From contig MWCR01000005.1 in the NCBI GenBank assembly GCA_002070095.1, positions 5,463-69,462 of the forward strand: 64,000 nt of DNA, read 5' to 3'. Positions 2,170 to 50,002 of the stretch are shown here, piece by piece. Under the pieces are notes generated by a model that ran no database searches, was not told the DNA's origin, and was given only the letters and a program-made list of their open reading frames with translations. Every line of letters begins with the position of its first letter. Positions within the stretch are counted from its first letter, which is position 1. This DNA is from Parcubacteria group bacterium ADurb.Bin192. GTDB taxonomy: Bacteria > Patescibacteriota > Patescibacteriia > 2-12-FULL-60-25. The position numbers and the translations under genes are program-made.

Positions 2170-3300
2170 ATGAACATCACTTACATCCACAACTGCAGAA
2201 TGCCAACCGAAAAAGCGCATGGCTATCAAATAGTTAAAATGTGCGAGGCTTTTGCGGATAACGGGGTGGTTATTGAACTGATTGTACCCAAGAGACGCAA
2301 TCATATTAAAGATGACGTTTTCACCTATTACCATACCAGAAATAATTTTACCTTTCGTTATCTAAAATTTATTGATTTTTTTTCTTGGTCATGGCTGAAT
2401 CATAAAATCGGTTTTACCTTAAATATTTTGGAGTTTTTATTGCTTTCTCTGTCTTTAAAAATTGATAAACAAAACATTATTTACACGCGCAGTCCGGAAA
2501 TAGCTTGGCTGTTTGGAGTGCGCGGTTATAAAACTTTTTATGAATGTCATCAGTTGCCGGAAAAAAAATCAAAATTATTTGGTTATTTCATAAAAAAAAT
2601 TCACGGCATTGTAACCATAACCAATGGTTTAAAACAAGATCTTGTTGCCGATTACACCTATTCTGCCGATAAGATATCGACCGCGCCCGATGGAGTTGAT
2701 TTGGAAACATTTGATATAAAAATAACACGCCAAGAGGCACGCGAGCAATTAGGCTTACCTGGTAATAAAAAAATTATTTTATATACAGGTCATCTTTATA
2801 CGTGGAAAGGCGTTGATACCTTAGCCGATGCATCCAAAAATTTACCGGTTGATATTTTAATTTATACTGTAGGCGGTGACGCGCAAGAAATAGACGCATT
2901 TTATCAAAGGAATCCGAATCATAAAACTATTAACATCCCCGCCGTTACTAGAGAAAAAGTAGCCATTTGGCTTAAAGCCGCCGATTTACTAATCCTGCCG
3001 AATAGCGCCAAAGAAAAAATTTCAGCAAAATACACTTCACCGCTCAAATTATTTGAATACTTGGCCAGCGGCACGCCGATAATTGCCAGTGATTTGCCGA
3101 GCGTGAATGAAATTCTTGATCAAAACGATTGTGCCTTCTTCACGGCTGATGATGCATCAAGTTTAGCATCAACAATCCTTAAATCATTAAGCGATGAATT
3201 ATTGTTAAACGATTTAACTTCAAAGATGAAAAAAATAGCACTTCAATATTCATGGCAACAAAGAAGCGCCCTCATACTCTCAAAAATAATAAAGCAGTAG
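2170..3300 (+). CDS. glycosyltransferase family 4 (GT-B)
   Basis: 376 aa. N-terminal MNITYIHNCRMPTEKAHGYQIVKMCEAF, C-terminal half ILYTGHLYTWKGVDTL ... SPLKLFEYLASGTPIIASDLPS, typical of GT4/GT1. Confidence 0.85.
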   Translation: MNITYIHNCRMPTEKAHGYQIVKMCEAFADNGVVIELIVPKRRNHIKDDVFTYYHTRNNFTFRYLKFIDFFSWSWLNHKIGFTLNILEFLLLSLSLKIDKQNIIYTRSPEIAWLFGVRGYKTFYECHQLPEKKSKLFGYFIKKIHGIVTITNGLKQDLVADYTYSADKISTAPDGVDLETFDIKITRQEAREQLGLPGNKKIILYTGHLYTWKGVDTLADASKNLPVDILIYTVGGDAQEIDAFYQRNPNHKTINIPAVTREKVAIWLKAADLLILPNSAKEKISAKYTSPLKLFEYLASGTPIIASDLPSVNEILDQNDCAFFTADDASSLASTILKSLSDELLLNDLTSKMKKIALQYSWQQRSALILSKIIKQ

Positions 3301-14149: not shown

Positions 14150-15112
14150 TTATATATTTATTTTTTCCTTAATACTGTACGGCATGCGGCTCTGATCCGA
14201 ATAATAAGTGCGCATTAACACCTCTGCCAGCAAGCCCGACATGATTAATTGAACACCAACGATGACAAACATCGCCCCGACAATTGGCAGTGGTGTTTGA
14301 ATGAGGCTGACTCCCAAAATAAACTTATAATAAAGTGCGCCAAGTTCAGCCAAACCACCGAGGCCAAGTGAGATAAATCCAACCGCTCCAAAAAAATGCA
14401 TCGGCTTGTTAAAATACTTCATCAAGAATTTAACCACAATCAGATCCAGTATGACTTTAAAAACACGCGAGATGCCATATTTAGAAACACCGGCGACGCG
14501 CGCTCTGTGATTGACGACTATTTCAGTAACTTTAGCTCCGGACCAGGCTGCATAAGCCGGGATAAAACGATGCATTTCGCCAAAGAGTTCTACGTCTTGG
14601 ATTATGTCGCGGTGATAGGCTTTTAAACTGCAACCGTAATCGTGCAAATGCACACCGGTCATGATGGAGATTATGGTGTTCGCCGCCCAAGATGGGATTT
14701 TTCGTAATATCAATTTATCTTTGCGATCTTTACGCCATCCGGAAACGCAAGAAAATCCCTGATAGATTTTTTCTAAAAATTTGGGAATGTCCGCCGGGTC
14801 ATTTTGCCTGTCTGCATCCATGGGAATAATGATGTCGCCCGATGCTAATTTGATACCGCAACTCATGGCCGCGGTCTGACCGCTATTGCGGCGGAATATT
14901 ACGGTTTTTACTCGACTATCTCGTATCGACAAATCTTTTAGTATCTGCGGGCTATTATCTTTGGAACCATCATCCACAAATATCATCTCAAAAAAATATT
15001 GTGGCATTTTCTCTGTCGTTTGGCAGATTTCTTCATAAAGCCCTTGCAGATTTTCCTCTTCATTATAAACAGGAATCACGAGAGAAATTGATTTTGCGCT
15101 GTTTTCAATCAT
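14150..15112 (-). CDS. GT2 glycosyltransferase, polyprenyl-phosphate glycosyltransferase-like (GtrB/ArnC type)
   Basis: ISLVIPVYNEEENL, DDGSKDNS, PMDADRQNDP, plus two C-terminal TM helices. I prefer the ATG at 15112 (MIENSAK), which overlaps the upstream AsnB stop as ATGATTGA; the ORF track extends to 15196. Confidence 0.8.
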   Translation of the reverse strand: MIENSAKSISLVIPVYNEEENLQGLYEEICQTTEKMPQYFFEMIFVDDGSKDNSPQILKDLSIRDSRVKTVIFRRNSGQTAAMSCGIKLASGDIIIPMDADRQNDPADIPKFLEKIYQGFSCVSGWRKDRKDKLILRKIPSWAANTIISIMTGVHLHDYGCSLKAYHRDIIQDVELFGEMHRFIPAYAAWSGAKVTEIVVNHRARVAGVSKYGISRVFKVILDLIVVKFLMKYFNKPMHFFGAVGFISLGLGGLAELGALYYKFILGVSLIQTPLPIVGAMFVIVGVQLIMSGLLAEVLMRTYYSDQSRMPYSIKEKINI

Positions 15113-17009
15113 ATTTATATGCCCCAGCATCATACCACAATTGAAACATGAAAAAAGCCCATAATTCCTTACGCCTGTCAATCTTACCGCTTGCATGCTC
15201 GACTATCATGTCTTGAACTGATTTTGGGTTAAAAACACCCTGATTTTGCAATCTTTCTTTAGAGGATAACCCGGCAAGGCGATCTTTAAGAGGTCCGTTT
15301 AACCAGGCACCAACCGGGGCGGCAAAACCGTGTTTAGGGTGGCTTAAAACACCTTCCGGAACTTTACCGCGCAGAAGTTCTTTGAATAGCCGCTTGCCTT
15401 TATAAGCTCCGAGCTTATATTTATTCGGTACATTTAACAAATATTCAACAACTCGGGTATCCAAAAACGGAGCACGCGCCTCGAGTGCATACCACATGGT
15501 AGCTCGATCGACTTTAACAAGGACTTCGTCCATCAAAAAGGTGCGGAGGTAGGCATAAGACCAGCGGGGCCAGAAACTATCGTACTTCGTACATCGTACA
15601 TCGTACAATAATTCGGAGGCGCGGGAGCGGAGAGATTGTTCGGCGTAGTTTGTATCTATTTGGGACGCGAATTCGGGTTGGAGGAGGTTTTGGAGATAAT
15701 TCCCTGTCATTGCCCCGCGCCAGCGCACATCACGCGCCCAAGCATCAGGCGCACCCAATCCCCTAGCCATACGTTGAGCCTTGAAACCAAGGCTAAAATA
15801 ACCATCGCCCGCAGGAACAGAATTTAACATCCTTGCCAATAGACGTGGGACGTAGGACGAGCGACGTGGGACGATATTGAGTAGCTGATGAGCGGGAACA
15901 TGTTGATAGCCGAGTAGAAGTTCATCACCGCCATCCCCCGAAAGAGCAACTGTAACGTGTTGGCGAGTGAATTTTGACACTAGTAGTTGCGGTAAAATTG
16001 ATGCATCAGCCAAAGGCTCGTCCAATAATTGTTGAGCTTGATCGATCATTTGCAATGCGTCGCTGGCAGATAAAATCTCGAGATAGTGATCTAATCCCAA
16101 AGCTTCTGCAGTCTGTTTTGCATAAATACTTTCATCGTGGCTTTTGTCGTCAAAACCTATGGTAAAAGCCTGCAAACGACGATTAGCCTGACGGGATGCA
16201 CTTTCAGCAATCACAGCCGAATCAAGCCCGCCCGAGAGGAATAAACCCAAAGGAACATCCGCAACCAAGCGCTCGCGGACTGCGATATCGATAAGTTCTT
16301 GCAGGCCTTGAAGAACTTGCTTAGCACCCCGATCCTCCTGCTTTATGATTTCAGGTTGCCAAAATTTCCATTGACTTTGAATTTGACCGCCTTGCCAGGA
16401 CATGGCCGTGGCCGGTTCGAGTTTAAAGACATTTTTAAAAATTGTGTGCGGAGTGGGAACAGCATCAGTTTGAAAGTAGCAGGCCAAAGACAAGGGGTCG
16501 ATTTCACGTTTGACAACTCCGGAAGCAACTAGCGATTTCAATTCCGAGGCGAACCAAAGAGTTTGGTTGTGGATCGTCCAATAAAGTGGTTTTTTACCCA
16601 ACCTATCCCGTGCGATGATCAAACGTTTTTTGCGCACATCCCAGATTGCGATGGCGAACATGCCATTGAGATACTTGAAGCAATCATCTCCCCATTGCTC
16701 GTAAGCGTGTGCGATTACTTCCGTGTCACTTTTTGTATGAAATACATGATCGGAGGCCTCAAGCTCCGCACGGACGCTTTGGTAGCCGTAGATCTCGCCA
16801 TTCATGATTACCCAGACAGTGCCATCCTCATTGGATAATGGTTGATGCCCTCCGGATACGTCGATAATGCTTAGGCGACGGAAGCCCATACCGATGCCAT
16901 CAGCAACATAAAAACCCTCGTCATCAGGCCCACGATGCTTGATGACGTTCGTCATTCTCTGCAATTGTTCTTTGCTCCCCGCTCCGGCAAAGCCAGCGAT
17001 TCCGCACAT
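15105..17009 (-). CDS. asnB: asparagine synthase (glutamine-hydrolysing) family amidotransferase, paralog 2
   Basis: The ATG at 17009 gives MCGIAGFAG; the track start 17015 is TTG. SGGLDSA PP-loop. Carries two in-frame heptamer-repeat-derived segments (LYDVRCTKYDS and IVPRRSSYVPR). Confidence 0.85.
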   Translation of the reverse strand: MCGIAGFAGAGSKEQLQRMTNVIKHRGPDDEGFYVADGIGMGFRRLSIIDVSGGHQPLSNEDGTVWVIMNGEIYGYQSVRAELEASDHVFHTKSDTEVIAHAYEQWGDDCFKYLNGMFAIAIWDVRKKRLIIARDRLGKKPLYWTIHNQTLWFASELKSLVASGVVKREIDPLSLACYFQTDAVPTPHTIFKNVFKLEPATAMSWQGGQIQSQWKFWQPEIIKQEDRGAKQVLQGLQELIDIAVRERLVADVPLGLFLSGGLDSAVIAESASRQANRRLQAFTIGFDDKSHDESIYAKQTAEALGLDHYLEILSASDALQMIDQAQQLLDEPLADASILPQLLVSKFTRQHVTVALSGDGGDELLLGYQHVPAHQLLNIVPRRSSYVPRLLARMLNSVPAGDGYFSLGFKAQRMARGLGAPDAWARDVRWRGAMTGNYLQNLLQPEFASQIDTNYAEQSLRSRASELLYDVRCTKYDSFWPRWSYAYLRTFLMDEVLVKVDRATMWYALEARAPFLDTRVVEYLLNVPNKYKLGAYKGKRLFKELLRGKVPEGVLSHPKHGFAAPVGAWLNGPLKDRLAGLSSKERLQNQGVFNPKSVQDMIVEHASGKIDRRKELWAFFMFQLWYDAGAYKYD

Positions 17010-17011
17010 AA

Positions 17012-18634
17012 TCAAGGCTTAACTTCTGCTAATGCGTAATTTTTGTTTTGGAAAATAATTTGTGTGTCTGAAAGCTTTGAATGATCAATTTGTTCAGAGG
17101 GATATAGGATGTGTGTGGCGTGTGTTTCTTCCGCGATAATTTGCAGTTCGGCCATATCTTTATTTTTGTATGCTTCTTTAATTCTTTCAGTTAACGCAAA
17201 ACCACGTTGCCTCGCCTCGTAACCTTGAGTCAAGCCGCCTTTGTCTTTATCAGCGATTACGATGCTTCTTAATGCAAATCCTCTAATTTCCATTGAAATA
17301 CCACTTACCGGCGATAAAATTTTACTATCAATCGGTGTTTGATTTTTGATATAACGATAGAGCTCCACACGATTCTGAAAACGCTCACTGTTCTTAAGCC
17401 AATCAGCCTGATGACGGATGGTATAAATTATATTTGATGCACCTACTAAAATAAAAATGTACAGTGCAAAGCCTAATATAATTTTTCCCTTTTTACCTAT
17501 TGAAATTTCTGTATCCAAGAATTTGATAACAACAAGATAAAATAGAGCTAAGAACAAAAACTGTGAAAATCCGCTGGCGCCCTGGAACATGAAAAAGAAA
17601 TATGAATAATTCTCAAGTAAAATCGCAACAAATGTAAGAATCGCAGAAATTATTATTATTTTCATTAAAGTATTTTCGAATTGTTCATAATTTCCTATTT
17701 TTTTAAATACTTGGTTACTCTTAAGTTTTGCTTGAAAAAACCAAAAAGCAAAAAGTAGTACAATAGGTACTAAAAATCGACGGGCGCTGGCGATAAAATA
17801 TTGAGGACTCTCTAGTGAAATATAAGGTGTTAGTACTTTTGTATCCGGATCTGTAAGTAAACCCGTACCATGTATTCGTAATACTTCAAAAAATGGCAAT
17901 GGCATCAACAATATACAAACCACACACAATACCAACAAGTTTTTTAATTTCAATGTTTTTTGCCAAGCGACACACAAGGTCATTATTACCAGCAGGTGCG
18001 TAAACACGACTGCGTATATATTTACCAGTAACGCTGTTACGATAAAGACACTATATATCCATTTTTCATTTTTATTATTTACAGCCTTTAAAAACGCACC
18101 AAATATAACAAAACCCAGCGCAATAGCGATACTATGCGTATTGTATCCTCCAATAAAACCTCCAAGCCAAATACCGGCAAATATCTGGAAACCAAAAATA
18201 AAAAGTGTTGAAAATATAAAACTCCAAAATTTATTTTTAGTCCGGTCCCAAAGTGTCAAGAATACGGCAAAGACTATTATTATATTTAAAATTAATCCGA
18301 TTAGTCCTGATGATACAATCACGTCGAGATGTATGAGTTGTGATAGTTTTGCCAGTGTTGGATAGATAAACTCTCGTTCACTGAATAACCTTAACTCACC
18401 GTTAAAATGCACATCTTGCACAAAACACTCCGGACAAATTTCATACTGGATTCCTGTCACCTGCAGTGGCACGTCTGTATTTAAGTATAAATACCCAAAA
18501 GGAATTTGACCAAAAATATTTGGCCAAAGATAAAAACCGATCACTGTAAACAATAAGCCCAAATAGAGCCACGGTGAATTGCTCGCTTTTTTCTCCGTTT
18601 TTCCAATGTTTGACGATGTAATATCGGAATTCAT
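17012..18634 (-). CDS. polytopic membrane protein (possible glycan polymerase or GT-C-like; function from context only)
   Basis: 540 aa. At least 10 hydrophobic helices followed by a ~120-aa soluble C-terminus. Very low GC. No motif I can name. Confidence 0.55.
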   Translation of the reverse strand: MNSDITSSNIGKTEKKASNSPWLYLGLLFTVIGFYLWPNIFGQIPFGYLYLNTDVPLQVTGIQYEICPECFVQDVHFNGELRLFSEREFIYPTLAKLSQLIHLDVIVSSGLIGLILNIIIVFAVFLTLWDRTKNKFWSFIFSTLFIFGFQIFAGIWLGGFIGGYNTHSIAIALGFVIFGAFLKAVNNKNEKWIYSVFIVTALLVNIYAVVFTHLLVIMTLCVAWQKTLKLKNLLVLCVVCILLMPLPFFEVLRIHGTGLLTDPDTKVLTPYISLESPQYFIASARRFLVPIVLLFAFWFFQAKLKSNQVFKKIGNYEQFENTLMKIIIISAILTFVAILLENYSYFFFMFQGASGFSQFLFLALFYLVVIKFLDTEISIGKKGKIILGFALYIFILVGASNIIYTIRHQADWLKNSERFQNRVELYRYIKNQTPIDSKILSPVSGISMEIRGFALRSIVIADKDKGGLTQGYEARQRGFALTERIKEAYKNKDMAELQIIAEETHATHILYPSEQIDHSKLSDTQIIFQNKNYALAEVKP

Positions 18635-18713: not shown

Positions 18714-19733
18714 TCAAGTAATTTTGTTTAAAATTACTTTTACCAACCTACATAAAGAATGCTTTTCTTCTACCTCAAGTTTTCCAACGTGATGAGTAGC
18801 TACTGTAAACAAGATGTCATGCATCTTTGAAAAATCATCTAGAATAAACTCGTAACTGATCACACCCTTTATTTGTTGGTAACCTTCGCCTCTGGCGATA
18901 ACCGGCACTCCGCAGGCTAAAGCCTCTAAAACCACTTTATCAATACTCCCTGTTTGACTGGTACTCAAAAAAAGTTTAGCGCGTTGATAAACGTCCGGCA
19001 ACCGCTCATATTCCATGGCCGGTAAAATACGAAATCTTTCCGCCAAGCCCAATTGTTCAGCTTTTTGGTTTAATGATTGGACATAGTCTTCGTGCCCTAA
19101 TGACGGTCCGATAATTTCATAAACCCATTGATCTTCCGGATATTTTTCTTTGTATTTTGCCAAAAATTCCAAAGAATCTTCATATTTTTTTGCGGGTGTA
19201 ATTCGTGAAACCGTAATTATTATATTCTCTTTTTTTACTTCCGAATCAGGCTTGAATAATGCCGTATCTATCCCCTGCCCCACAAATCTAGCTTTAGGCG
19301 TAGGCAAACGCAAACCTGTTTCCGAACTTGCAAAAATCAATTTAACCAATGGTTCGGCTAATTTTAACGCTAAAGGGATAGCGCCGTGCGCATACCAAAG
19401 ATAAATGGGTTTGCGTAATACAAACCAAATCGGCCAGCCGGCAAGCACCACTTCAGGCGACATATGAACAAAAACCGCGTCATATTTTTTTCTGTGCTTA
19501 AACGCAGAATGCCAAATTTTTAAAACCCGAGGCAGCCAAGCTTTACCAAGAGCAACCCCGATGGATCCGGCTGGCACATCGCTTTCATCAACATACCGGC
19601 TGATTAAAACCAAAGGACCCGCTTGTTTGGCAAATTCAGCCATCCAATTAACAGAAAACCCAAATACCGGGTCGTCATGTTTCAATGTCGGCGTATATAT
19701 TAATAATCTTTTTGAATTGTGACTATTTTCCAT
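18714..19733 (-). CDS. glycosyltransferase family 1/4
   Basis: 339 aa. IITVSRITPAKKYEDSL ... SQTGSIDKVVLEALACGVPVIA, a GT-B C-terminal signature. Confidence 0.75.
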   Translation of the reverse strand: MENSHNSKRLLIYTPTLKHDDPVFGFSVNWMAEFAKQAGPLVLISRYVDESDVPAGSIGVALGKAWLPRVLKIWHSAFKHRKKYDAVFVHMSPEVVLAGWPIWFVLRKPIYLWYAHGAIPLALKLAEPLVKLIFASSETGLRLPTPKARFVGQGIDTALFKPDSEVKKENIIITVSRITPAKKYEDSLEFLAKYKEKYPEDQWVYEIIGPSLGHEDYVQSLNQKAEQLGLAERFRILPAMEYERLPDVYQRAKLFLSTSQTGSIDKVVLEALACGVPVIARGEGYQQIKGVISYEFILDDFSKMHDILFTVATHHVGKLEVEEKHSLCRLVKVILNKIT

Positions 19734-22209
19734 ATGACCTTAATCTCAAGTCATGATTTTCAATCGCCTTTTCAACAAACTCCCCAAAAGTATTATTTCC
19801 TTTCAATCCAGACGCAGCTAAAGACTGAACGGTTAAACGATTTTGGAGCATGGCGAGCATGGCCTGACTCAAACCATGCACATCTCCCACAGGCACAACA
19901 TAACCGTTTTCACCGTTTTTAACCACCTCACCGGCACAACCCACATTGGTCATAATAACAGGCGTGTGACACATTAGCGACTCCACAGCCGTCATGCCAA
20001 AACCCTCTCCGTCCGAGGTGATGAGCGTGGCTACTGCTCCTTGATATAGTTCAGTCAAATTATCGGTCCAAGGGATGATCTCGACTCCAGCTTGTAATTC
20101 AAAATCAGCTATCCACTGCTTAACCTGACCCTCCAACGGCCCAGCCCCCACGATTTTAAGCTTAATATCAGGATCTTGCTTAACAACAAGACTGAAGGCA
20201 TGGATGGCGAGGTCTATGCGTTTAATGGGAACGAACCTGCAAACCAAGAGGAAATATCGTCCTACGTCGCACGTCCCGCGTCCCACGTCAACCGACGTAT
20301 TCCCGATAATTGATGATTGGTTATTGATTATTGGTAATTGGTTATTGGTAATTAAATTCAGCGGGAAACGGACCATCTTCTCTCGCGAGATACCAAGATT
20401 AGCAAGTGCATCTTCGGTTCTTTGACTGACAACTCGGATGGCATCCGCGCGTTTTACCAGCCACTTGGCCAACCAATATCTGAAATGATTTAAAAACGAC
20501 TCTTGATAATAATACTTTCCATGAAAATGATAGCCGTGATCCTGAACCGCTAAGGCTGAATTGCACAATCTGGCTGATATGGCGCCCACCAAACCTGTCT
20601 CTACGGGATCTTGCGTGATAACGACTTTAATATCCGTGTTTCTGATTTTCCAGGCCTGCACCAAGGCATCCCAGACATAAAAAAACTTATGCCAAGAATG
20701 AGTGGAGATGACGCGCACATTGGGCGCGATTTGCTCATCAAACTTTTGCTTGGCAAAAACGATGATGACAGCCTCGAAATCTTTTAACTGATCAACAATT
20801 CTATCCCGCACTTTTCCGGGCTCAAAGAGTTTACGCTCAAGGCTGATAGACAGGATGCGCTGACGCTGGTCATGATTTGAATCACGCCCCTGGATTCCCG
20901 TTTTCACGGGAATGACAATGGGGGTGACGTGGGACCCGCCTTCGCCGAAGCTTCGGTGGGCAGGCGCGGGACGCGGGACAGCTTGCCCCGTCGATACGGG
21001 GTGCGACGATAAAATCGAGAACGTTTCATTTATCATCCTCTCAAAACCAAGCTTATCCGGCAACCCAACGCGGGACGTGGGACGAGCGACGAGCGACGAT
21101 GCGATGGCTTCAACCCATGCTTGTTTATTTAAATACTCGGCCACCGTTACCAAGCCCGGAAAAAGTTCAGCGATTTCCGGATTCCCGCCTTTGTCGCTGA
21201 CAATGCAAGGCAGACCCGTGGAAGCGGCTTCAACGACCACATGCGGAAAACCTTCATAGCCCGTGGCGAGCACGAATAAATGAGCCTTATGATACCACTC
21301 GGTTAATTCAGCCCGTGACAACCGGCCCAGCCACATAACGCGATCCGCCACGCCTATTTCTTGTGCGTGCTTTTTCCAATTCTCCAACTCCGGCCCATCA
21401 CCCGCCACCGCCAAAACATATTCTTCCGGCAAATCTTTGATAACATCACACAAAAAATCCCCACCCTTCCAAGGCACAGCTCGTACGGCCGTCAAGATCA
21501 CTTTTCGTCGCTCGTCGCTCGTCCCACGTAAATCTGACGCGAGACGTGGAAGCGACGAAATAGAATTATAAACAACGTTTATCTTATCAGCCGGGATACC
21601 CCACTTAGTAACGATTGTTTTAAGATACTTGGACGGCACAATAATCTGCTTAGCCCGCGACGCCACCCACCTCTCAACCGCCTCCATCAACCAAATCTTC
21701 CCCTCATGCCGACGCGTCACAAACTCATCCAGCAATTCAAACCCTCGTCGCTCGTCGCTCGTCCCAATCGTCCCGCGTACTTCTGACGTGGGACGCAGGA
21801 CGTGCGACGCGGGACGTTGCTGGTATTGTTCCCACGCATAATCCCCCACTACTTTTAGAACAAGAGGTTTACGAGCAAAAATTGACGCCAAGGTAGCCGG
21901 CAACCCCTCTGACACCGGCCCTTGCGCATAAACCACATCCGCCTGGCGCGCAAGTTTGTAAGCATTCCAAAAATACATCCAGTATCTTTGTACGATGGCA
22001 CGCGTGTTCGCGAACGCCGTGCCGATGTACGATGTACGATGTACGACCGTAACTTTATAATTTTCACCAATCTCTGTTTTCTCGTCCCCGTATGTGATGA
22101 CAGCCACCTCATGACCTTGCCTCGCGAGTTCAGTCGCGACACCCTTAACATACCCGGCCGGTCCGCCGATTTCGGGAGGGTATATTCCAGTGGCTATTAA
22201 TAACTTCAT
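19723..22209 (-). CDS. tandem double GT4 glycosyltransferase (two GT-B units joined by a repeat-derived linker; several in-frame repeat insertions)
   Basis: Unit 1 is MKLLIATGIYPPEIGGPAGYV...ATGYEGFPHVVVEAASTGLPCIVSD. Unit 2 is RILSISLERKLFEPGKVRD...SDGEGFGMTAVESLMCHTPVIMT and has no start codon of its own. The linker HPVSTGQAVPRPAPAHRSFGEGGSHVTPIVIPVKTGIQG is encoded by hairpin modules. Confidence 0.75.
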   Translation of the reverse strand: MKLLIATGIYPPEIGGPAGYVKGVATELARQGHEVAVITYGDEKTEIGENYKVTVVHRTSYIGTAFANTRAIVQRYWMYFWNAYKLARQADVVYAQGPVSEGLPATLASIFARKPLVLKVVGDYAWEQYQQRPASHVLRPTSEVRGTIGTSDERRGFELLDEFVTRRHEGKIWLMEAVERWVASRAKQIIVPSKYLKTIVTKWGIPADKINVVYNSISSLPRLASDLRGTSDERRKVILTAVRAVPWKGGDFLCDVIKDLPEEYVLAVAGDGPELENWKKHAQEIGVADRVMWLGRLSRAELTEWYHKAHLFVLATGYEGFPHVVVEAASTGLPCIVSDKGGNPEIAELFPGLVTVAEYLNKQAWVEAIASSLVARPTSRVGLPDKLGFERMINETFSILSSHPVSTGQAVPRPAPAHRSFGEGGSHVTPIVIPVKTGIQGRDSNHDQRQRILSISLERKLFEPGKVRDRIVDQLKDFEAVIIVFAKQKFDEQIAPNVRVISTHSWHKFFYVWDALVQAWKIRNTDIKVVITQDPVETGLVGAISARLCNSALAVQDHGYHFHGKYYYQESFLNHFRYWLAKWLVKRADAIRVVSQRTEDALANLGISREKMVRFPLNLITNNQLPIINNQSSIIGNTSVDVGRGTCDVGRYFLLVCRFVPIKRIDLAIHAFSLVVKQDPDIKLKIVGAGPLEGQVKQWIADFELQAGVEIIPWTDNLTELYQGAVATLITSDGEGFGMTAVESLMCHTPVIMTNVGCAGEVVKNGENGYVVPVGDVHGLSQAMLAMLQNRLTVQSLAASGLKGNNTFGEFVEKAIENHDLRLRSYGK

Positions 22210-22217
22210 AAACCAAC

Positions 22218-22870
22218 GTCTAGACCTTGATTAACTTGATTACGCTCAGATTATCCTTGATTACTTAATGACAGACCAAATTCAACTTAATGATGCTCAG
22301 ATTATCCCTGATTACTTAATGAGCTGAATTATGATTAACATAATTACTTTGGGTTAACAACTTATCACTGCCTGATTTAAATTTGTTGTTGTATATTCTT
22401 TTAAATTCTAAACTTTTTGCGCCAAAATTAATTAATAGCCCGATTTCAACATTATAAGCCTCAAGATAATTCATGGCTTGCGCCAAATGAGCATTATCCA
22501 ATTCAGTTGCCGCCTTAAGCTCAAGCATAACACAATTCTCAACGAAAAAATCCACTCTGCGCGTTCCTATATCAAAACCTTCATAATAAATCTTCATTTC
22601 TTTTTCCCTCTCAAATTCCAATCCTTGCATCTGCATCTCAATTTTTAAAGCACGCTGATATATAACCTCTTGAAAACCATTCTTCAAAACCCCATGAACT
22701 TTCATCGCGCATCCAATAATTTTATGGGTAATTTCATAAGTGTCCATATATACAGTCGCCATTTCAATAAATAATCCCGGAAAAATTTAAGCGTCATCGC
22801 GTTAAATTTGGTTTTGTCATTTAGTAATCAAGGTTAATCTGAGCGTAATCAAGTTAATCAAGGTCTAGAC
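22218..22870. mobile_element. TIR-bounded cassette carrying a GxxExxY gene (56-bp terminal inverted repeats)
   Basis: IR-L at 22218-22273 (gtctagaccttgattaacttgattacgctcagattatccttgattacttaatgaca) matches the reverse complement of IR-R at 22815-22870 at 54/56 positions, by manual alignment. Confidence 0.6.
22316..22762 (-). CDS. GxxExxY family protein (PD-(D/E)XK nuclease-like fold)
   Basis: NGFQEVIYQRAL contains G-x-x-E-x-x-Y. Also RVDFFVENCVMLELKA and AQAMNYL..LLINFG, typical of the family as I remember it (TIGR04256). Confidence 0.8.
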   Translation of the reverse strand: MATVYMDTYEITHKIIGCAMKVHGVLKNGFQEVIYQRALKIEMQMQGLEFEREKEMKIYYEGFDIGTRRVDFFVENCVMLELKAATELDNAHLAQAMNYLEAYNVEIGLLINFGAKSLEFKRIYNNKFKSGSDKLLTQSNYVNHNSAH

Positions 22871-24000
22871 AATGAGCTGAAAACCCCTCCCATCCTCTCC
22901 GCTATACTAACCCAATTATACTGATTAACCGCCAAATCTTTGCCTTGACGTATCAGTTTATCGCGCAATCCGGGCTCTGTTTGAATACGCACAGCCGCTT
23001 CTGCGATAGTCTCGGGTTTACCGGGTTCACAAAACAAGCCGGTCTCACCGTCGGTCAGAAAATCAGGAATACCTCCCACGGGCGTGCCTATGATGGGGAT
23101 GCCCGAAGCCATGGCTTCCAAAAACGAATTGCCCAAACCTTCGGACAAGGATGGCCGGCAAAAAATATCGGATGACTGCAACAAACCCGGCAGTTCAGCG
23201 TGTCCGCGCAGGCCTAAAAATACCACTCTGTTATCCAATTTATTTTGTGCCACCAATTCTTTTAACTTGGCCATATCTTCGCCGTCGCCCACCACCAAGA
23301 CTTTATAATTATCCGGCAAATGAGTTAAAGACAAGATCAGATGGTCGGTCGCGTTTTTAAGTACCAAGCGCGAGGCCGTGACCAAGACCACGTCGTCCGG
23401 TGCAAAACCCATGGCCTGACGCAAGGCCTGCCTTTCATCCGGAGTTATGGATTGTGTAAAACGCGTCACATCCACGCCATTGGGAATGATAACCGGCTCG
23501 CCTTTAAAACCCATATTCTTGCCCCAATCGGCCAGAAACTTGCTGATAGCCTGTATTTGATTGGCGCGGGTAAATATCTTTTTGAAAACCCAGCCTAAAG
23601 GCCTGACACGTTTTAAAATATATTCCGGCGGATCGCCCTCTTGCAGAGTCAACAACATCTTGGTTTTAGGACGCAGCCACGTATAAAACAAGGCCGCGAA
23701 ACCCCCAAAACTGGCCATCATGGACCAGATGCCGGCCACTTCGTCCTGTTTGGCCAAACGCCAAGCTTTGAAAGCACCTAAAAAGGGCAGCAAATATTTA
23801 TCCACAGGCTTGCCCAAACCGCAACGATAAACCTCCACCTTCCCCACTCTCTCGTGATCCGGCAGTCCGGCCTGAATTTTGGCGGTCACCATCACAAAAT
23901 CATAATCATTGATTCTGTCCGTGATTTCTTTAATGGCAACTTCAGCCCCGCCCACCAAAGGAAAATAGGCCGTGGAGAAGATAATGATTTTTTTAGACAT
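22858..24000 (-). CDS. glycosyltransferase family 4
   Basis: MSKKIIIFSTAYFPLVGGAEVA...VTASRLVLKNATDHL...SLSEGLGNSFLEAMASGIPIIGT. The last three codons and the stop lie inside IR-R of the neighbouring cassette. Confidence 0.85.
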   Translation of the reverse strand: MSKKIIIFSTAYFPLVGGAEVAIKEITDRINDYDFVMVTAKIQAGLPDHERVGKVEVYRCGLGKPVDKYLLPFLGAFKAWRLAKQDEVAGIWSMMASFGGFAALFYTWLRPKTKMLLTLQEGDPPEYILKRVRPLGWVFKKIFTRANQIQAISKFLADWGKNMGFKGEPVIIPNGVDVTRFTQSITPDERQALRQAMGFAPDDVVLVTASRLVLKNATDHLILSLTHLPDNYKVLVVGDGEDMAKLKELVAQNKLDNRVVFLGLRGHAELPGLLQSSDIFCRPSLSEGLGNSFLEAMASGIPIIGTPVGGIPDFLTDGETGLFCEPGKPETIAEAAVRIQTEPGLRDKLIRQGKDLAVNQYNWVSIAERMGGVFSSLSRP

Positions 24001-24001
24001 A

Positions 24002-25456
24002 TTATTGAGAAATATCTTTTAAAATGGCGTTATAAACAAAACGAATTTGATTGGCGAACACATCGCCCGTGCGATTGGAGGCTGTCAGACGGGCGGACGA
24101 AGCCACATTGGCCGCATAATGCAGTTGATGCCCCGAAGAAGCAGAGATCTGATCCGCGTTCTTCAGAATAGTGTTTAACAACAAACGCAAATGCCAGGGG
24201 ACTTTTTCTAATTTTTGATCAGCCAACGAAATCAACAACGGCATGTGTGATTGACGGCGAAACACAATACCGGCCAAAGCCGCGTAACTGGCCATGATGG
24301 ACCAGGTGAACAAATATTGATGGCGAGCCATTAATTCTTTGGCTTTACGCGGTCCGTACCAAGGCAAAAAATATTTATCTGTTTTTTTGCCCCGGCCGAT
24401 TTTATGCACTGTTACATTGGACAAGGGCGACCCGGCCCGCAAAGCATCGGCCGAAAAAGCCGAAGTAATCACGTCAAAATGCACATCTTTCATCAACTCC
24501 ATGAGTTTTAACAAAGCCTGTTCCGCCAAGCCCTGCACCGGATAAAAAGTGGTGGAAAAAACCAGAACCCTTTTATCCTCTCCGGCCAAGCGTTCGGTTT
24601 TAGCGATAAAATCACGAATGTATTCGTCCAATCTATGCTTCTGCTCCCAGCCCAAAGCCCGCGCTCTGGAGGTATCAGCTTGGGAAGTCAAGCGATTGCC
24701 CCGCCGTTCCGGGAGCATGACTACGGGCGCGCCAAACATTTTGGCTACGTCCATAACCGAAAAAGCCTGTTCCGCGCCCAAGCCGAACTCATCACCTTCT
24801 CCCTTATCGCCCACCAAAATCAAACCATCCACGATATCATCCACGTGCGTGAAATTTCTGGCTTGCGTGCCGGGTGCTGTGACGGTTAAGGGCTGACCCT
24901 GCCTGAATTCCTCGCTGAAAATGCCGATCAAAGTGGAATACGGACCGTGACTGATTTCGCCCGGACCGTAAACATTATAAAAATAAGTGATGGCAAAAGG
25001 CAGGCCGTACCACTGTCCATAATTTTTAACCAGCTCCGTGTTGGAGGCTTTCATCCAGGTATAAGGCGTGAGATCGCGCCCCAAACCGCCGTCCGAAAAT
25101 TTGGTAGATGAACCCGCGTACACGATTTTACAATTTTTCTTACGGCAAAATTCCAACACCGCAAAAGTGCCCGCCTTATTCAAATCCCAAACCAATTCCG
25201 GCGGATCCTCCAAACTTTTTTCCACGCGCGAATACTCACCCAGATGAAAAACCAAATCCGGAGTTTCGCTGACCAATTTTTCGATTTCTTTGCTGTGCCC
25301 CTCTCTGTATTCCACCCCCGGCACATGATTGTCACGCGAACCCGTAAAATAATTATCCAGGCTGATTACTTTGTGCCCCAAAGACACCAACCGCCGGCAA
25401 AGATTGGAGCCCACAAAACCCGCGCCTCCGGTCACCAGGATTAATTTTGAGTCCAT
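24002..25456 (-). CDS. NAD-dependent sugar-nucleotide epimerase/dehydratase fused to a GT-B N-terminal-half-like domain
   Basis: N-terminus ILVTGGAGFVGSNL with a YxxxK-type SDR fold (~290 aa). The C-terminal ~190 aa (RVLVFSTTFYPVQGLAEQA...DKYFLPWYG...WSIMASYAALAG) is paralogous to the N-half of the adjacent GT4. Confidence 0.75.
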   Translation of the reverse strand: MDSKLILVTGGAGFVGSNLCRRLVSLGHKVISLDNYFTGSRDNHVPGVEYREGHSKEIEKLVSETPDLVFHLGEYSRVEKSLEDPPELVWDLNKAGTFAVLEFCRKKNCKIVYAGSSTKFSDGGLGRDLTPYTWMKASNTELVKNYGQWYGLPFAITYFYNVYGPGEISHGPYSTLIGIFSEEFRQGQPLTVTAPGTQARNFTHVDDIVDGLILVGDKGEGDEFGLGAEQAFSVMDVAKMFGAPVVMLPERRGNRLTSQADTSRARALGWEQKHRLDEYIRDFIAKTERLAGEDKRVLVFSTTFYPVQGLAEQALLKLMELMKDVHFDVITSAFSADALRAGSPLSNVTVHKIGRGKKTDKYFLPWYGPRKAKELMARHQYLFTWSIMASYAALAGIVFRRQSHMPLLISLADQKLEKVPWHLRLLLNTILKNADQISASSGHQLHYAANVASSARLTASNRTGDVFANQIRFVYNAILKDISQ

Positions 25457-25528
25457 AATACAGCCAATTTAGCTTAATTAGGCGCAAAAAGCAATGACCC
25501 CACTTCGCACCCGGTGCTTCGCGGGGTA

Positions 25529-25760
25529 CAGCTCCGTGGATTCCCGTTTCCCCCACCTACGCTTCACTAACAAAGCTCTGGTGGGCACAGCACGGGAATG
25601 ACAAAATGACGGTCATGTCATTGCGAGGAATGAGTCCGACGAATGCCACGGCACGGCGTTCGCGAACTCCGTGCCGTGGCAATCTGCTTAGAGTATCAGG
25701 CTGATTAGCGAGATTGCCGCGCTCCGCTCGCAATGACAATGTTAGTTTTGACGCAGGACG
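25529..25760 (+). repeat. composite hairpin repeat, copy 1 (ggattcccg...cgggaatgac module + gtcattgcgag...ctcgcaatgac long hairpin)
   Basis: The first ~100 nt are nearly identical to 27322-27420 (one indel); the remainder is similar in module order. The long hairpin spans 25617-25737 with a nested ggcacggcgttcgcgaac(t)ccgtgcc stem. Confidence 0.85.
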
Positions 25761-25938
25761 CGGGACGAGCGACGCAGGACGTTAGGTACGTGAGAGGACG
25801 TTATGTACGCTAAGTACGTGGCACGTTGTTACATGCTACATGCTATGTGCTATATGCTACATGCTATGTGCTACATGCTACATGCTACATGCTATGTGCT
25901 ATATGCTACATGCTATGTGCTACATGCTACATGCTACA
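25750..25938 (+). repeat. 7-bp-periodic array: GACGNNN units grading into 16 x TGCTAYR units with a 49-bp higher-order duplication
   Basis: gacgcag gacgcgg gacgagc gacgcag gacgtta at 25750-25784, then 25827-25938 = 16 consecutive heptamers. 25841-25889 and 25890-25938 are identical 49-mers. Confidence 0.9.
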
Positions 25939-25973
25939 TGAAAATGGACGTTATTCACGATCCGTTGTAATTT

Positions 25974-27251
25974 ATGCTTATGAGCCAAGTTAAGCCGATT
26001 CTGCTCATGGTTACCAGCCAAGACTGGGGCGGAGCCCAAGCCTATGTTTTTAATTTGGCGCTTGAAATGAAATCACAAGGCCTACCCGTCATCATCTGCG
26101 CCGGCTCTGCCCCGACGCGGGACGACTCTTTGGGCCAAAAATGCCATTCCGCAGGCATTGACTTCATCGAAATAAAACACCTGGCGCGCAATATAAATCC
26201 GATAGATAATTTTTTAGCTCTGATTGAACTGATAAAATTATTCAGACGCGTCCAACCCCGGGCCATTCAACTCAATAGCTCCATGATGGGCGCCGTCGGT
26301 TCTTTAGCCGGGTATCTGACAAAAGTGCCCAAGATAGTTTACACGGCTCATGGCTGGGTTTTTAATGAACAATTGCCGAACTGGAAAAAAACTTTATATA
26401 TTTGGATAGAAAAAATATCAGCTCGCTTAAAGCACGTGATTATTTGCTTGCATGATCAAGATTTGGAGCTGGCTAAAAAACACGGAATTAAACCACGACA
26501 AAAAATCACCGTTATTCCTAACGGGATTGATGCTATAACTTTTGAAAAAAACCTTGCCGGACGGGAAGAGGCTTGTAAGACATTAAGCGAGATTGCCGCG
26601 CTCGTCGGACTCCCTCGCAATGACAATGTTAGTTTTGACGTAGGACGCGGGGTCCTTCCTTTCGCGAAAGGAGGGAGGACATTGGGTTTTTTGTTACATG
26701 CTACATGTTACATGTTTTGTGACGAGCGACGTGGGACGTTAGTCGGCACGGTGGCCAACGCCTATCCGCCCAAAAACCTGCTTTGGTATTTGGAGGTGTG
26801 CCAAGCTGTGCACGCTAAGGATCCTGATATCCGTTTTGTGATTGCGGGCGATGGTCCGCAAATGGAAGAATTAAAAGCCAAACACCGGGCACTTGAGCAA
26901 GAAGAATATGTTTTACTGACCGGCAGATTAGACCCGGCCGGTATTTATCAAGCTTTTGATATTTTTGTTTTGCCCTCGAGCAAAGAAGGCATGCCCATCA
27001 CTATCTTAGAGGCCATGGCCGCCAAACTGCCGATTATCGCCACGGATGTGGGCGCCTGCCGCCTGATGCTCGAGCCGGACGCGGGCCTGATTGTCCCGCC
27101 CAATGATTTATCAACCTTGACTCAAACCATTCTGGATTTGACGGATGACGCGGATAAACGCCAAAAACTGGGCCAACAAGCCTACCAAAAAGTTACTCAA
27201 AATTTTACCTGGCAAAATACCGCTGATCAGACCATAAAAGAACTCCTCTAA
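25974..27251 (+). CDS. glycosyltransferase family 4 with ~51-aa in-frame repeat-derived insertion
   Basis: ILLMVTSQDWGGAQAYV...VIPNGIDAITF...[SEIAALVGLPRNDNVSFDVGRGVLPFAKGGRTLGFLLHATCYMFCDERRGT]LVGTVANAYPPKNL...SSKEGMPITILEAMAAKLPIIATDVG. Confidence 0.8.
   Translation: MLMSQVKPILLMVTSQDWGGAQAYVFNLALEMKSQGLPVIICAGSAPTRDDSLGQKCHSAGIDFIEIKHLARNINPIDNFLALIELIKLFRRVQPRAIQLNSSMMGAVGSLAGYLTKVPKIVYTAHGWVFNEQLPNWKKTLYIWIEKISARLKHVIICLHDQDLELAKKHGIKPRQKITVIPNGIDAITFEKNLAGREEACKTLSEIAALVGLPRNDNVSFDVGRGVLPFAKGGRTLGFLLHATCYMFCDERRGTLVGTVANAYPPKNLLWYLEVCQAVHAKDPDIRFVIAGDGPQMEELKAKHRALEQEEYVLLTGRLDPAGIYQAFDIFVLPSSKEGMPITILEAMAAKLPIIATDVGACRLMLEPDAGLIVPPNDLSTLTQTILDLTDDADKRQKLGQQAYQKVTQNFTWQNTADQTIKELL
26587..26741 (+). 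repeat. intragenic copy of the composite repeat (half long-hairpin + GACGNNN + TTACATG heptamers)
   Basis: gcgagattgccgcgctcgtcggactccctcgcaatgacaatgttagttttgacgtaggacgcgg closely matches intergenic 25708-25765. Followed by ttacatg ctacatg ttacatg and gacgagc gacgtgg gacgtta. Confidence 0.85.
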
Positions 27252-27321: not shown

Positions 27322-27546
27322 CAGCTCCGTGGATTCCCGTTTCCCCACCTACGCTTCACTAACAAAGCTCTGGTGGGCACAGCACGGGAATGACAAAATG
27401 ACGGTCATGTCATTGCGAGGAGTCCGACGACGCGACACGGCGTTCGCGAACGCCGTGTCGCGGCAATCTGCTTAGACAGCTAACTCATAAGCGAGATTGC
27501 CACGCTCCGCTCGCAATGACAATATTGGTTTAGACGTGCGACGTTA
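27322..27546 (+). repeat. composite hairpin repeat, copy 2 (direct repeat of 25529-25760)
   Basis: Same module order and orientation as copy 1. Ends in gacgtgc gacgtta immediately before the stop codon (27553) of the next minus-strand gene. Confidence 0.85.
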
Positions 27547-36712: not shown

Positions 36713-37040
36713 TGTGGATTCCCGTTTTCATAAGAAAACAACAATCATGTCATTGCGAGGAATGTAATCATGACGTGGCAATCTGCTTAGACGACTAGCC
36801 AATAAGCGAGATTGCCGCGTCGTCGGACTCCTCGCAATGACATGGTGGCATTTTAATGATTTAGTGATGACGTCCCTCTTTTTGTCATCCTCGCGTAGGC
36901 GGGGATCCAGTTTATAAACTCACCCTAACCCTCTCTTAAGATTAAGAGAGGGAAAGTAAGCTCGAAAGTGGAGCACAGCTCTGTCGTAGGACGACTGGGA
37001 CGTGCGACGTAGGACGTGCGACGAGCGACGTTAAATACGC
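36713..37040 (+). repeat. intergenic cluster of hairpin modules ending in a GACGNNN heptamer array
   Basis: gtggattcccg; long hairpin gtcattgcgagg...cctcgcaatgac (36749-36841); gtcatcctcgcgtaggcggggatcc; ccctctcttaagattaagagaggg; then heptamers gacgact..gacgtgc gacgtag gacgtgc gacgagc gacgtta (about 36983-37035) running into the stop of the next gene. Confidence 0.85.
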
Positions 37041-48874: not shown

Positions 48875-50002
48875 TCACCATTGCGTTAAAACCGGCAAGG
48901 TCTTTTGAGCCGTCACCTTCCAGGTGTATTTGGAAGCGCGGGCAATACCGGCCATACGCAATTTTTGCGCCAAGCCAGGTTCATCGATCAAGCGATTCAT
49001 GGCCACTACCATGGCTTCGGGTTCGGCGGGCGGGAAAAAGACAGCTGATTCAGGACCGATAACTTCCACCAAAGCTCCCACATTGGAAGATAAAACCGGA
49101 CAACCGCAGGCCATGGCCTGCACGGGCGGAATACCAAAACCCTCATACCAAGCCGGATGGATCAAAGCTTGAGCCGCGTTAATCAGATATGGCATATCGG
49201 CTTCGGGCACATAGCCCAACTGAATAATGGAATCTTTGTATGAAGACGCGGCAATCGCCTTTTTGATTTCCTCATAACCAAAACCCGGGTTACCCACCAA
49301 TACCAAATTATTCGGATCCCCCACTCCGCGCCGGGCTTTAAACAAAGAAAAGGCTTTGATTAAATTAACCGTATTCTTTTTAGCTTCCAAACGGCCGATG
49401 GTTATAAAATAAGGACGGTTAAGACGATAACGGCTCAACCTTTCATCCAAGGCTTGCTGATCGGAAATCGGACGGTAAACATCATGATCCACGCCGTTGG
49501 GAGTGATGGCGATTTTTTCCGGAGGAATGCCGTAGCACTCGGCTATCTCTCGGCCGGAAAATTCGGAGACTGTTGCCACGCGTGAGGCTTTTTTAGCAAT
49601 ATCCTTGGTGCTTATTTCATGAAATTGACGGTCCCGTGCTTTATACAAATGAGGAAAACGATGAAAGCCTACATCATGCACCGTAACCACGGTTTTTTTG
49701 GGGATAACGCGCGGCAAAACATGCGCCGGCACAAATAAAACATCGGACGGACGACGGAGCATCTCCCAGCTTAGACGCAGTTGGGTCCAGCCCTTTTGCA
49801 AAAACCAGCGCGCGCGCACTTCATACCAATTATCAGGCAATTGCTCCAAACCTCCATGCAGCATCTCATTGGTATATAGAATCCAAGAGTTCTGGTCGCC
49901 TTGAGTCATCTTTTTCAGCTCCTGTATCAGATGCCAGGCATACCACTCCACCCCGGTTTTATTCTTTTTATTGGCGCGCGAAGCGTCTATCCCGATAATC
50001 AT
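48875..50002 (-). CDS. glycosyltransferase family 4 (mannosyltransferase-like)
   Basis: MIIGIDASRANKKNKTGVEWYAWHL...TIGRLEAKKNTVNLI...WYEGFGIPPVQAMACGCPVLSSNVGA. Confidence 0.85.
   Translation of the reverse strand: MIIGIDASRANKKNKTGVEWYAWHLIQELKKMTQGDQNSWILYTNEMLHGGLEQLPDNWYEVRARWFLQKGWTQLRLSWEMLRRPSDVLFVPAHVLPRVIPKKTVVTVHDVGFHRFPHLYKARDRQFHEISTKDIAKKASRVATVSEFSGREIAECYGIPPEKIAITPNGVDHDVYRPISDQQALDERLSRYRLNRPYFITIGRLEAKKNTVNLIKAFSLFKARRGVGDPNNLVLVGNPGFGYEEIKKAIAASSYKDSIIQLGYVPEADMPYLINAAQALIHPAWYEGFGIPPVQAMACGCPVLSSNVGALVEVIGPESAVFFPPAEPEAMVVAMNRLIDEPGLAQKLRMAGIARASKYTWKVTAQKTLPVLTQW

Follow-up and report, generated by a model that had tools for sequence, protein, structure and literature searches.

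Why do short DNA repeats lie at the same structural position in three different glycosyltransferase domains? The question is raised by a 64,000-nucleotide stretch of DNA from Parcubacteria group bacterium ADurb.Bin192 (contig MWCR01000005.1; the whole stretch is called the window below, and positions are counted from its first letter), which carries a glycan biosynthesis locus of an ultra-small, uncultivated member of the Patescibacteria (candidate phyla radiation, CPR). A reading made from the letters alone (the sequence-only reading) had described independent repeat insertions in the loop between the N- and C-domains of three glycosyltransferase family 4 (GT4) domains, one in a single-unit gene (gene A) and two in a gene of two fused units (gene B), and had offered two explanations: either purifying selection leaves insertions only in this permissive loop, or the DNA encoding the adjacent conserved motif is a preferred target. 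From the analysis presented here it seems fairly probable that repeats are tolerated in disordered loops, including the hinge of the GT-B fold, and that the sites which bear arrays are then rewritten repeatedly.

Repeat DNA in the interdomain linkers

The repeats were mapped by self-BLAST, TRF and a scan for period-7 arrays, which agree with one another and bear out the places at which the sequence-only reading had put them (Table 1). In the AlphaFold models, the gene A repeat falls in a coil (residues 212-255) between a helix (197-211) and a strand (256-260); the coil of unit 1 in gene B (213-235) lies between strands 210-212 and 236-241, and that of unit 2 (615-651) between strands 612-614 and 652-656. 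All three linker repeats end 0-2 residues ahead of the first C-domain strand (C-beta-1). On the secondary-structure topology of these models, homology of the three sites, as the coil that leads from the last strand of the N-domain to C-beta-1, is confirmed, and the contrary case of non-equivalent positions is refuted.

Table 1. Positions of the host genes, repeat sites and arrays (window coordinates unless a relative is named; gene B residues of sites a-f are approximate)
Feature	Position	Strand	Residues	Description
Gene A	25974..27251	+	425 aa	GT4 glycosyltransferase (Pfam, AlphaFold, Foldseek)
Gene B	19723..22209	-	828 aa; unit 1, 1-401; unit 2, 451-828	Two fused GT4 units (Pfam, AlphaFold, orthologues)
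Gene A linker insert	26584..26741	+	205-255	In frame, composite; net gain of about 45 aa
Gene B site a	21988..22050	-	54-74 (repeat patch 55-71)	TCGTACA array with nested palindrome (GGCACGGCGTTCGCGAACACGCGTGCC, 26-30 nt), unit-1 N-domain
Gene B site b	21740..21820	-	131-157	Hairpin of inverted heptamer arrays, unit-1 N-domain loop
Gene B site c (unit-1 linker)	21502..21560	-	218-236	Inverted CGTC/GACG heptamer array pair, hairpin; whole linker
Gene B site d	21066..21105	-	369-381	CGTC heptamer array, C-terminal end of unit 1
Gene B site e	20870..21003	-	403-447	Inter-unit linker built of repeat modules
Gene B site f (unit-2 linker)	20251..20356	-	619-653	TTACCAA-type array (20305-20355), then 32-nt GACG array (20258-20289), in tandem
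AsnB-like gene	15105..17015	-		Contains two in-frame arrays
AsnB-like gene, array 1	15580-15607	-	470-479	TCGTACA type
AsnB-like gene, array 2	15842-15873	-	381-392	GACG type, 32 nt
32-nt GACG-type arrays, window	15842-15873, 20258-20289, 21785-21816, 25750-25781, 36999-37030
32-nt GACG-type arrays, relatives	L001: 11951-11982; L002: 2760-2791, 3187-3218, 5052-5083
Intergenic composite upstream of gene A	25548..25945			Hairpin modules, then GACG array 25750-25781, then 16-unit TGCTACA array 25826-25945
Intergenic composite downstream of gene A	27340..27543			82 nt at 99% identity to 25548-25629

The description of the three cases as insertions stands for gene A, with its large net gain, and is inexact for unit 1, in which the linker was replaced. 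The gene A insert, absent from orthologues of about 377 residues, is a composite of a module resembling repetitive extragenic palindromic (REP) elements (26584-26634), also found in the intergenic composites bracketing the gene (25548-25784 and 27340-27543), two GACG units (26635-26651), a small hairpin (about 26652-26686), TGTTACA heptamers (26691-26716) of the same family as the upstream 16-unit TGCTACA array, and a GACG array (26721-26741) that reaches C-beta-1. In unit 1, 17 residues of the window correspond to 20 in orthologues with the canonical 'EVDSREELRDKHGLGNRK'-type linker, and their alignment indicates that the heptamer hairpin overwrote the ancestral linker with no net gain in length. 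The stem-loop character of the sites is uneven: it is strong in the unit-1 linker (folding energy of the DNA -18 kcal/mol, z = -3.8) and at site b (-25.7 kcal/mol, z = -3.8), moderate in the gene A insert (z = -2.8), and lacking in the unit-2 linker, which forms no hairpin (z = +0.4).

The host domains have the GT-B fold of GT4 enzymes. Pfam profiles above the gathering cut-offs were matched by gene A (PF13439 at 72 bits, PF00534 at 103 bits, and also PF13692) and twice each by gene B (PF13439 and PF00534; 98.6 and 210 bits). The models, which were built on orthologue alignments, have a predicted local distance difference test (pLDDT) score of 87.9 for gene A and 78.8 for gene B and show two Rossmann-like domains with a linker; the best Foldseek matches for this fold were PglA (8dqd; E = 1.5e-19, template modelling score 0.83 on the target), PimB' and BshA, with MshA also found. 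The E-x7-E motif of the C-domain (E338/E346 in gene A; E319/E327 and E735/E743 in gene B) occupies invariant columns of the orthologue alignments.

Linker length, counted in residues from an anchor of NG(I/V)D type to one of GRxxxxK(G/N) type, is 70 in gene A, 21 in unit 1 and 36 in unit 2; in five more GT4 domains of the window it is 30, 15, 28, 19 and 17. The contention that the GT4 genes free of repeats have short linkers is contradicted by two of these (30 and 28 residues), which are longer than unit 1. Gene B has six repeat patches, lettered a to f in order along the protein, four of which lie outside interdomain linkers, and the three linker cases were picked from at least seven occupied loops in two genes. 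Selection bias or chance might account for such a pattern, the linker being the longest GT-B loop and the three cases chosen from many patches. If sites were distributed uniformly on residues, of which the linker makes up about 7%, the probability that at least three of the six GT4-domain repeat sites fall in the linker is 0.005; with equal weight on each of the 23 coil segments of at least six residues in the two models, the three linkers would all belong to the seven occupied segments with a probability of about 0.02. P rises to 0.05-0.10 when 15-20% of the landing weight is placed on the linker. The linker pattern is non-random, modestly so once placement is limited to loops.

Orthologue alignments give firmer evidence on this point. 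In the family of gene A (116 sequences), 29 of 57 internal insertions of at least five residues are at the linker (about 20 distinct sequences), 19 in the loop after beta-2 and nine elsewhere. Just eight segments vary by five or more residues in the gene B family (18 sequences), and they include all six repeat sites; its linkers show nine (unit 1) and eight (unit 2) distinct lengths. The linker also accounts for eight of 41 insert cases, an enrichment of about 2.6-fold, among 140 representatives of the family of the GT4 gene at 48875, one subfamily-specific helix being set aside. These three families make bias or chance an unlikely explanation, in spite of the family of the GT4 gene at 22858 (120 orthologues), which is almost without linker inserts (one of 13 cases, the other 12 being in one N-domain loop). 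In these alignments the linker is a major indel hot spot in three GT4 families and not in the fourth, neither universal nor exclusive. Each of the four families has additional hot spots, and their differing between families is what local constraint would predict.

Several observations on the linkers may be added. No joint skipping 26584-26741, as expected from removal of the gene A insert at the RNA level, was present in metatranscriptome contigs, the coverage of which is fragmentary. A joint from 26644 to 26692 was seen in DNA contigs; its sides are only about 30 nt long and probably belong to other repeat copies. The insert region (26576-26747) has 10-20 times the contig depth of the flanking coding sequence in four metagenomes, and the modules of the insert are highly repeated in these communities, in the host organism and probably in others. 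A candidate fourth, decayed array in the linker of gene 37040 ('ERGTGD') was rejected, as it consists of just two ACG units at 7-nt spacing and is not significant.

Replacement of arrays in close relatives

Gene B was compared between the window and two syntenic relatives, L001 (GCA_041752935.1) and L002 (a Logan contig). Identity is 87-90% outside the repeat sites and 20-55% inside sites a, b, c and e, where the relatives have unrelated array families (GACG, GTACAA, TCGTACA, TTACCAA) between the same boundaries; the array families themselves are common to all three genomes. Site a in both relatives lacks the palindrome and has other heptamer arrays at canonical length. Site d is the same in the window and L002, and L001 (26% identity) has CAACGTG heptamer arrays instead, within which sits the very palindrome that the window has inside the heptamer array of site a. 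In place of the unit-1 linker repeat, L001 has 110 other bases, and near-identical strain contigs from metagenomes replace 21506-21564 by 110 nt and 21741-21825 by 25 nt with the boundaries unchanged. Site b is the most length-variable site among gene B orthologues (5-58 residues), and site e, with orthologue lengths of 19-101 residues, has an identity to relatives of 27-50% compared with 72-90% in its flanks. The gene A insert has the proximal module alone in common with the L001 orthologue. At site f, by contrast with these replacements, the same arrays are kept across relatives, with copy differences of 21 and 42 nt.

Passive tolerance does not cover all that the comparison with relatives shows. 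It points to a site preference of another kind, in which existing arrays are swapped wholesale or given nested hairpins in close relatives. It was also observed that the 2.5-kb gene B contains 6-7 heptamer arrays in each genome (19723-22209 in the window, 10001-12505 in L001 and 3225-5612 in L002) and that the remaining 13-60 kb of each locus have very few intragenic arrays.

The arrays belong to several dispersed unit families (GACGNNN, TCGTACA, TGCTACA and TTACCAA), which are multi-copy and both intergenic and intragenic in the window and the two relatives. Period 7 is over-represented in the window, 12 arrays having the same 4-mer every 7 nt for four units or more, compared with 0-1 for periods 5, 6 and 8-12. 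The GACG arrays are uniform, nine of 18 being exactly 32 nt long (five GACG cores), with spacers limited to six triplets (TGG, CGG, CAG, TAG, AGC and TGC); GACGTGG is a common start, and (A/T)T(A/G) comes directly after the array.

Such regularity might come from a dedicated, site-directed enzyme process (transposase-, recombinase- or reverse-transcriptase-like) that homes to existing arrays or hairpins and installs a unit of about 32 nt, a proposal which we regard as rather unlikely. The sharp and constant replacement boundaries, the unrelated families drawn from a repertoire common to the three genomes, the fixed array size and few spacer triplets, the palindrome twice nested within arrays, the overwriting of the unit-1 linker at constant length and the clustering of arrays in one gene would all be consistent with it. 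However, no candidate enzyme was identified (no genome-wide search was made) and the window has no transposase gene, no target-site duplication was seen, nor any conserved end motif beyond 1-2 nt, site f changes slowly and in copy number only, and old allelic polymorphism together with homologous recombination could mimic fast replacement. Under a directed process, the linker would have been struck repeatedly since it already held the target and not merely because it is tolerant, which is doubtful to a similar degree. It is likewise a tentative suggestion that in Patescibacteria, and perhaps in many other environmental bacteria with five-unit GACGNNN arrays, an undescribed process installs heptamer arrays of one constant size (about 32 nt), by preference over sites that already have an array or hairpin. 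The corollary that loops such as the GT-B hinge are heritable 'cassette sites', the content of which is exchanged faster than the gene diverges, should be treated with equal reserve.

The distribution of the GACG family was examined by a scan of genome contigs for five-unit GACGNNN arrays, which gave at least 120 loci in many phyla. Among the matches listed were Bacteroidota, Chloroflexota, Verrucomicrobiota, Gemmatimonadota, Acidobacteriota and Streptomyces (both metagenome-assembled genomes (MAGs) and isolates), none being obviously Patescibacteria; a Saprospiraceae chromosome and a Kapaibacterium MAG are examples of those with long GACGNNN runs. Among the same matches, 81 of 131 arrays lie within stop-free stretches of at least 200 codons, most of which look like spurious frames in GC-rich DNA, and no GT4 profile was matched around the arrays of other genomes.

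Probable tolerance in disordered loops and its alternatives

The repeats are located in low-confidence coil. Repeat-derived residues of gene B are 85% coil, compared with 36% for the rest of the protein, and match segments of low pLDDT; the gene A insert and all six gene B sites lie in coil or in such segments. The pLDDT is below 50 over residues 219-245 in gene A and, in gene B, over residues 135-155 (site b) and 619-649 (unit-2 linker), and it is 29-47 at site e. Both arrays of the AsnB-like gene are found within residues 371-497, a stretch that could not be aligned to solved asparagine-synthetase-type structures.

An explanation through tolerance would run as follows. Short heptanucleotide arrays and small palindromic modules would be scattered through the coding and intergenic DNA of this Patescibacteria lineage, a typical array being about 32 nt with five GACG cores and few 3-nt spacers, with TCGTACA and TTACCAA families beside it. 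Intragenic copies would persist only in disordered surface loops, where translation of the array does no harm; one such loop would be the segment that directly precedes C-beta-1, which would account for its occupation in three GT4 domains. An array-bearing site would then remain a hot spot, changing by multiples of three units, by swaps of unrelated arrays and by the nesting of palindromes, and this continued rewriting would leave unrelated repeat DNA at the orthologous sites of close relatives. We infer that purifying selection is what limits the repeats to loops and that array instability drives their turnover; the rewriting may occur by slippage, template switching or recombination, or by a dedicated process. 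The first of the two earlier explanations, purifying selection that leaves insertions in a permissive loop, gains support in this indirect way from the coil location, the length variation of orthologues and the family-specific hot spots.

Several points weigh against this explanation. Low pLDDT is partly circular as evidence, given that repeat-encoded peptides have no homologues, and the orthologue counts are not phylogenetically independent. In addition, tolerance alone leaves unexplained the presence of 6-7 arrays in one 2.5-kb gene of all three genomes when about 40 other genes of the window are free of them, the uniform length of arrays, and the overwriting of the unit-1 ancestral linker at constant length.

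The second of the earlier explanations, in which insertions preferentially target the DNA for the GRxxxxK(G/N) region or for the last part of the N-domain, is largely refuted and appears highly improbable. In all three cases the end of a GACG array on the sense strand lies 0-2 codons ahead of C-beta-1, as this explanation would have it, but the three host flanks have no motif in common, and the flanks of the 18 GACG arrays agree only in a preceding T and a following A/T-rich dinucleotide; the search for a conserved DNA target beside the insertion points, at the three sites and in these flanks, was negative. Moreover, the paralogues are too diverged to have a common DNA target, the GT4 genes at 22858, 37040 and 48875 are spared despite the same protein motif (one linker insert in 120 orthologues for the family of 22858), and the relatives have non-GACG arrays at the unit-1 site.

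It is also conceivable that the arrays are adaptive and that positive selection keeps them in surface-glycan enzymes, where they would serve as switches for phase variation or as hinge linkers that can be tuned. The intragenic arrays of the window are confined to three glycan-pathway genes, slippage of one heptamer unit would shift the frame, and copy number at site f differs between relatives. Nevertheless, the units are imperfect, the copy differences at site f keep the frame, the frame is open in 17 of 17 aligned orthologues and in both relatives, and no 7-nt indels were found in contigs of four metagenomes, in which rare variants would be hidden. An adaptive function is very unlikely on this evidence. 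A phase-variation (contingency) locus in particular was rejected as unlikely for want of frame-shifting variants in orthologues, relatives and contigs.

Related repeats and neighbouring features

By analogy, the closest counterparts of these repeats appear to be Rickettsia palindromic elements (RPEs) and intragenic REPs. The RPEs (Ogata et al. 2000/2002) are about 100-150 bp long, encode family-specific conserved peptides and are largely fixed (PMC10969869). Like them, the repeats described here are short, dispersed and placed in frame in unrelated genes, where they add a peptide at positions that fold and function tolerate; gene A provides such a case (45 additional residues in coil with pLDDT below 50), and unit 1 is a replacement. 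Unlike RPEs, they are heptamer arrays of about 30 nt and palindromes of 26-50 nt, which are combined in various ways, can be read in all frames and are replaced between close relatives, sometimes overwriting host sequence. The GTAG- and CGTC-tagged REPs are single stem-loops with one tag, some of them intragenic, and those with CGTC are not known to have a transposase of their own (Di Nocera et al. 2013, PMC3733652). They are similar in being small palindromic repeats that are often clustered or dimeric, and the commonest array in the window is built on a CGTC core; here, however, CGTC/GACG recurs every 7 nt in tandem and only some arrays are paired as hairpins.

Heptameric simple sequence repeats (SSRs) are over-represented in bacteria, and heptanucleotide arrays are known as the short tandemly repeated repetitive (STRR) sequences of cyanobacteria (both in PMC4692102) and the TAACTGA repeats of Beggiatoaceae (PMC4679880). 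The present arrays resemble STRR sequences in their 7-nt tandem unit and in the occurrence of several dispersed families per genome; both of the earlier types were described as intergenic, whereas those of the window also occur within enzyme genes, where they are in frame and fall in protein loops that are orthologous. The perfect tandem repeats of Borgs, which create intrinsically disordered regions, are of local origin, and their unit length varies, being a multiple of three within genes (PMC9879509). Both kinds evolve fast and are translated in frame within open reading frames (ORFs) as disordered segments, but the unit here is 7 nt, imperfect and drawn from genome-wide families. Simple-sequence contingency loci, such as the heptanucleotide and tetranucleotide SSRs of Haemophilus (PMC2651432), likewise place tandem repeats in surface-glycan genes; the arrays of the window differ in being imperfect and conserved in frame, with no frame-shifting variation in unit number seen. 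No published description of heptamer arrays inside Patescibacteria genes was found in the literature, which is not proof of their absence.

These observations show that genome-reduced bacteria can carry repeat DNA of selfish or mutational origin within their enzymes, and that the same few loops, the GT-B hinge among them, absorb it across many lineages; the pattern is real and mainly marks where a protein can carry junk. Annotations and alignments of CPR proteins include repeat-encoded pseudo-insertions, and linker length is a poor phylogenetic character in these proteins. Should the turnover be driven by an enzyme, it would represent a new kind of sequence-rewriting system.

Some features of the locus deserve a brief description. 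The best protein matches of the window are named 'Patescibacteria group bacterium', and its DNA was also found in metagenomes from activated sludge and a digester. The TGCTACA array upstream of gene A is made of TGCTACA/TGCTATG units with a 49-nt higher-order repeat and ends about 30 nt before the start codon. Orthologues of gene B contain double or triple GT4 units, and many of them (P0124-P0137) are single proteins of about 1200 residues with three units; the window has this third unit as a gene of its own (18714..19733), next to gene B and sharing 11 nt with it. The repeat-built inter-unit linkers of 19-101 residues suggest that adjacent glycosyltransferase genes may undergo fusion and fission via translated intergenic repeat arrays.

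Between two GT4 genes, a 653-bp segment (22218-22870) with 63-nt inverted repeats (92% complementary) contains a PD-(D/E)XK_3 (PF13366) gene. The corresponding junction in L002 (2827-3228) is occupied by a different gene, PF05635 (23S_rRNA_IVP), accompanied by GACG arrays at 2760-2791 and 3187-3219, and that in L001 (9998-10001) is empty. This junction looks like an exchangeable site for small-gene cassettes, with the same repeat families on its flanks. In addition, in an ORF of 484 residues (24002-25456), the NAD-dependent epimerase/dehydratase domain is confined to residues 6-246, and the counterparts in L001 and L002 have 311 and 470 residues, which points to a C-terminal extension of variable length.

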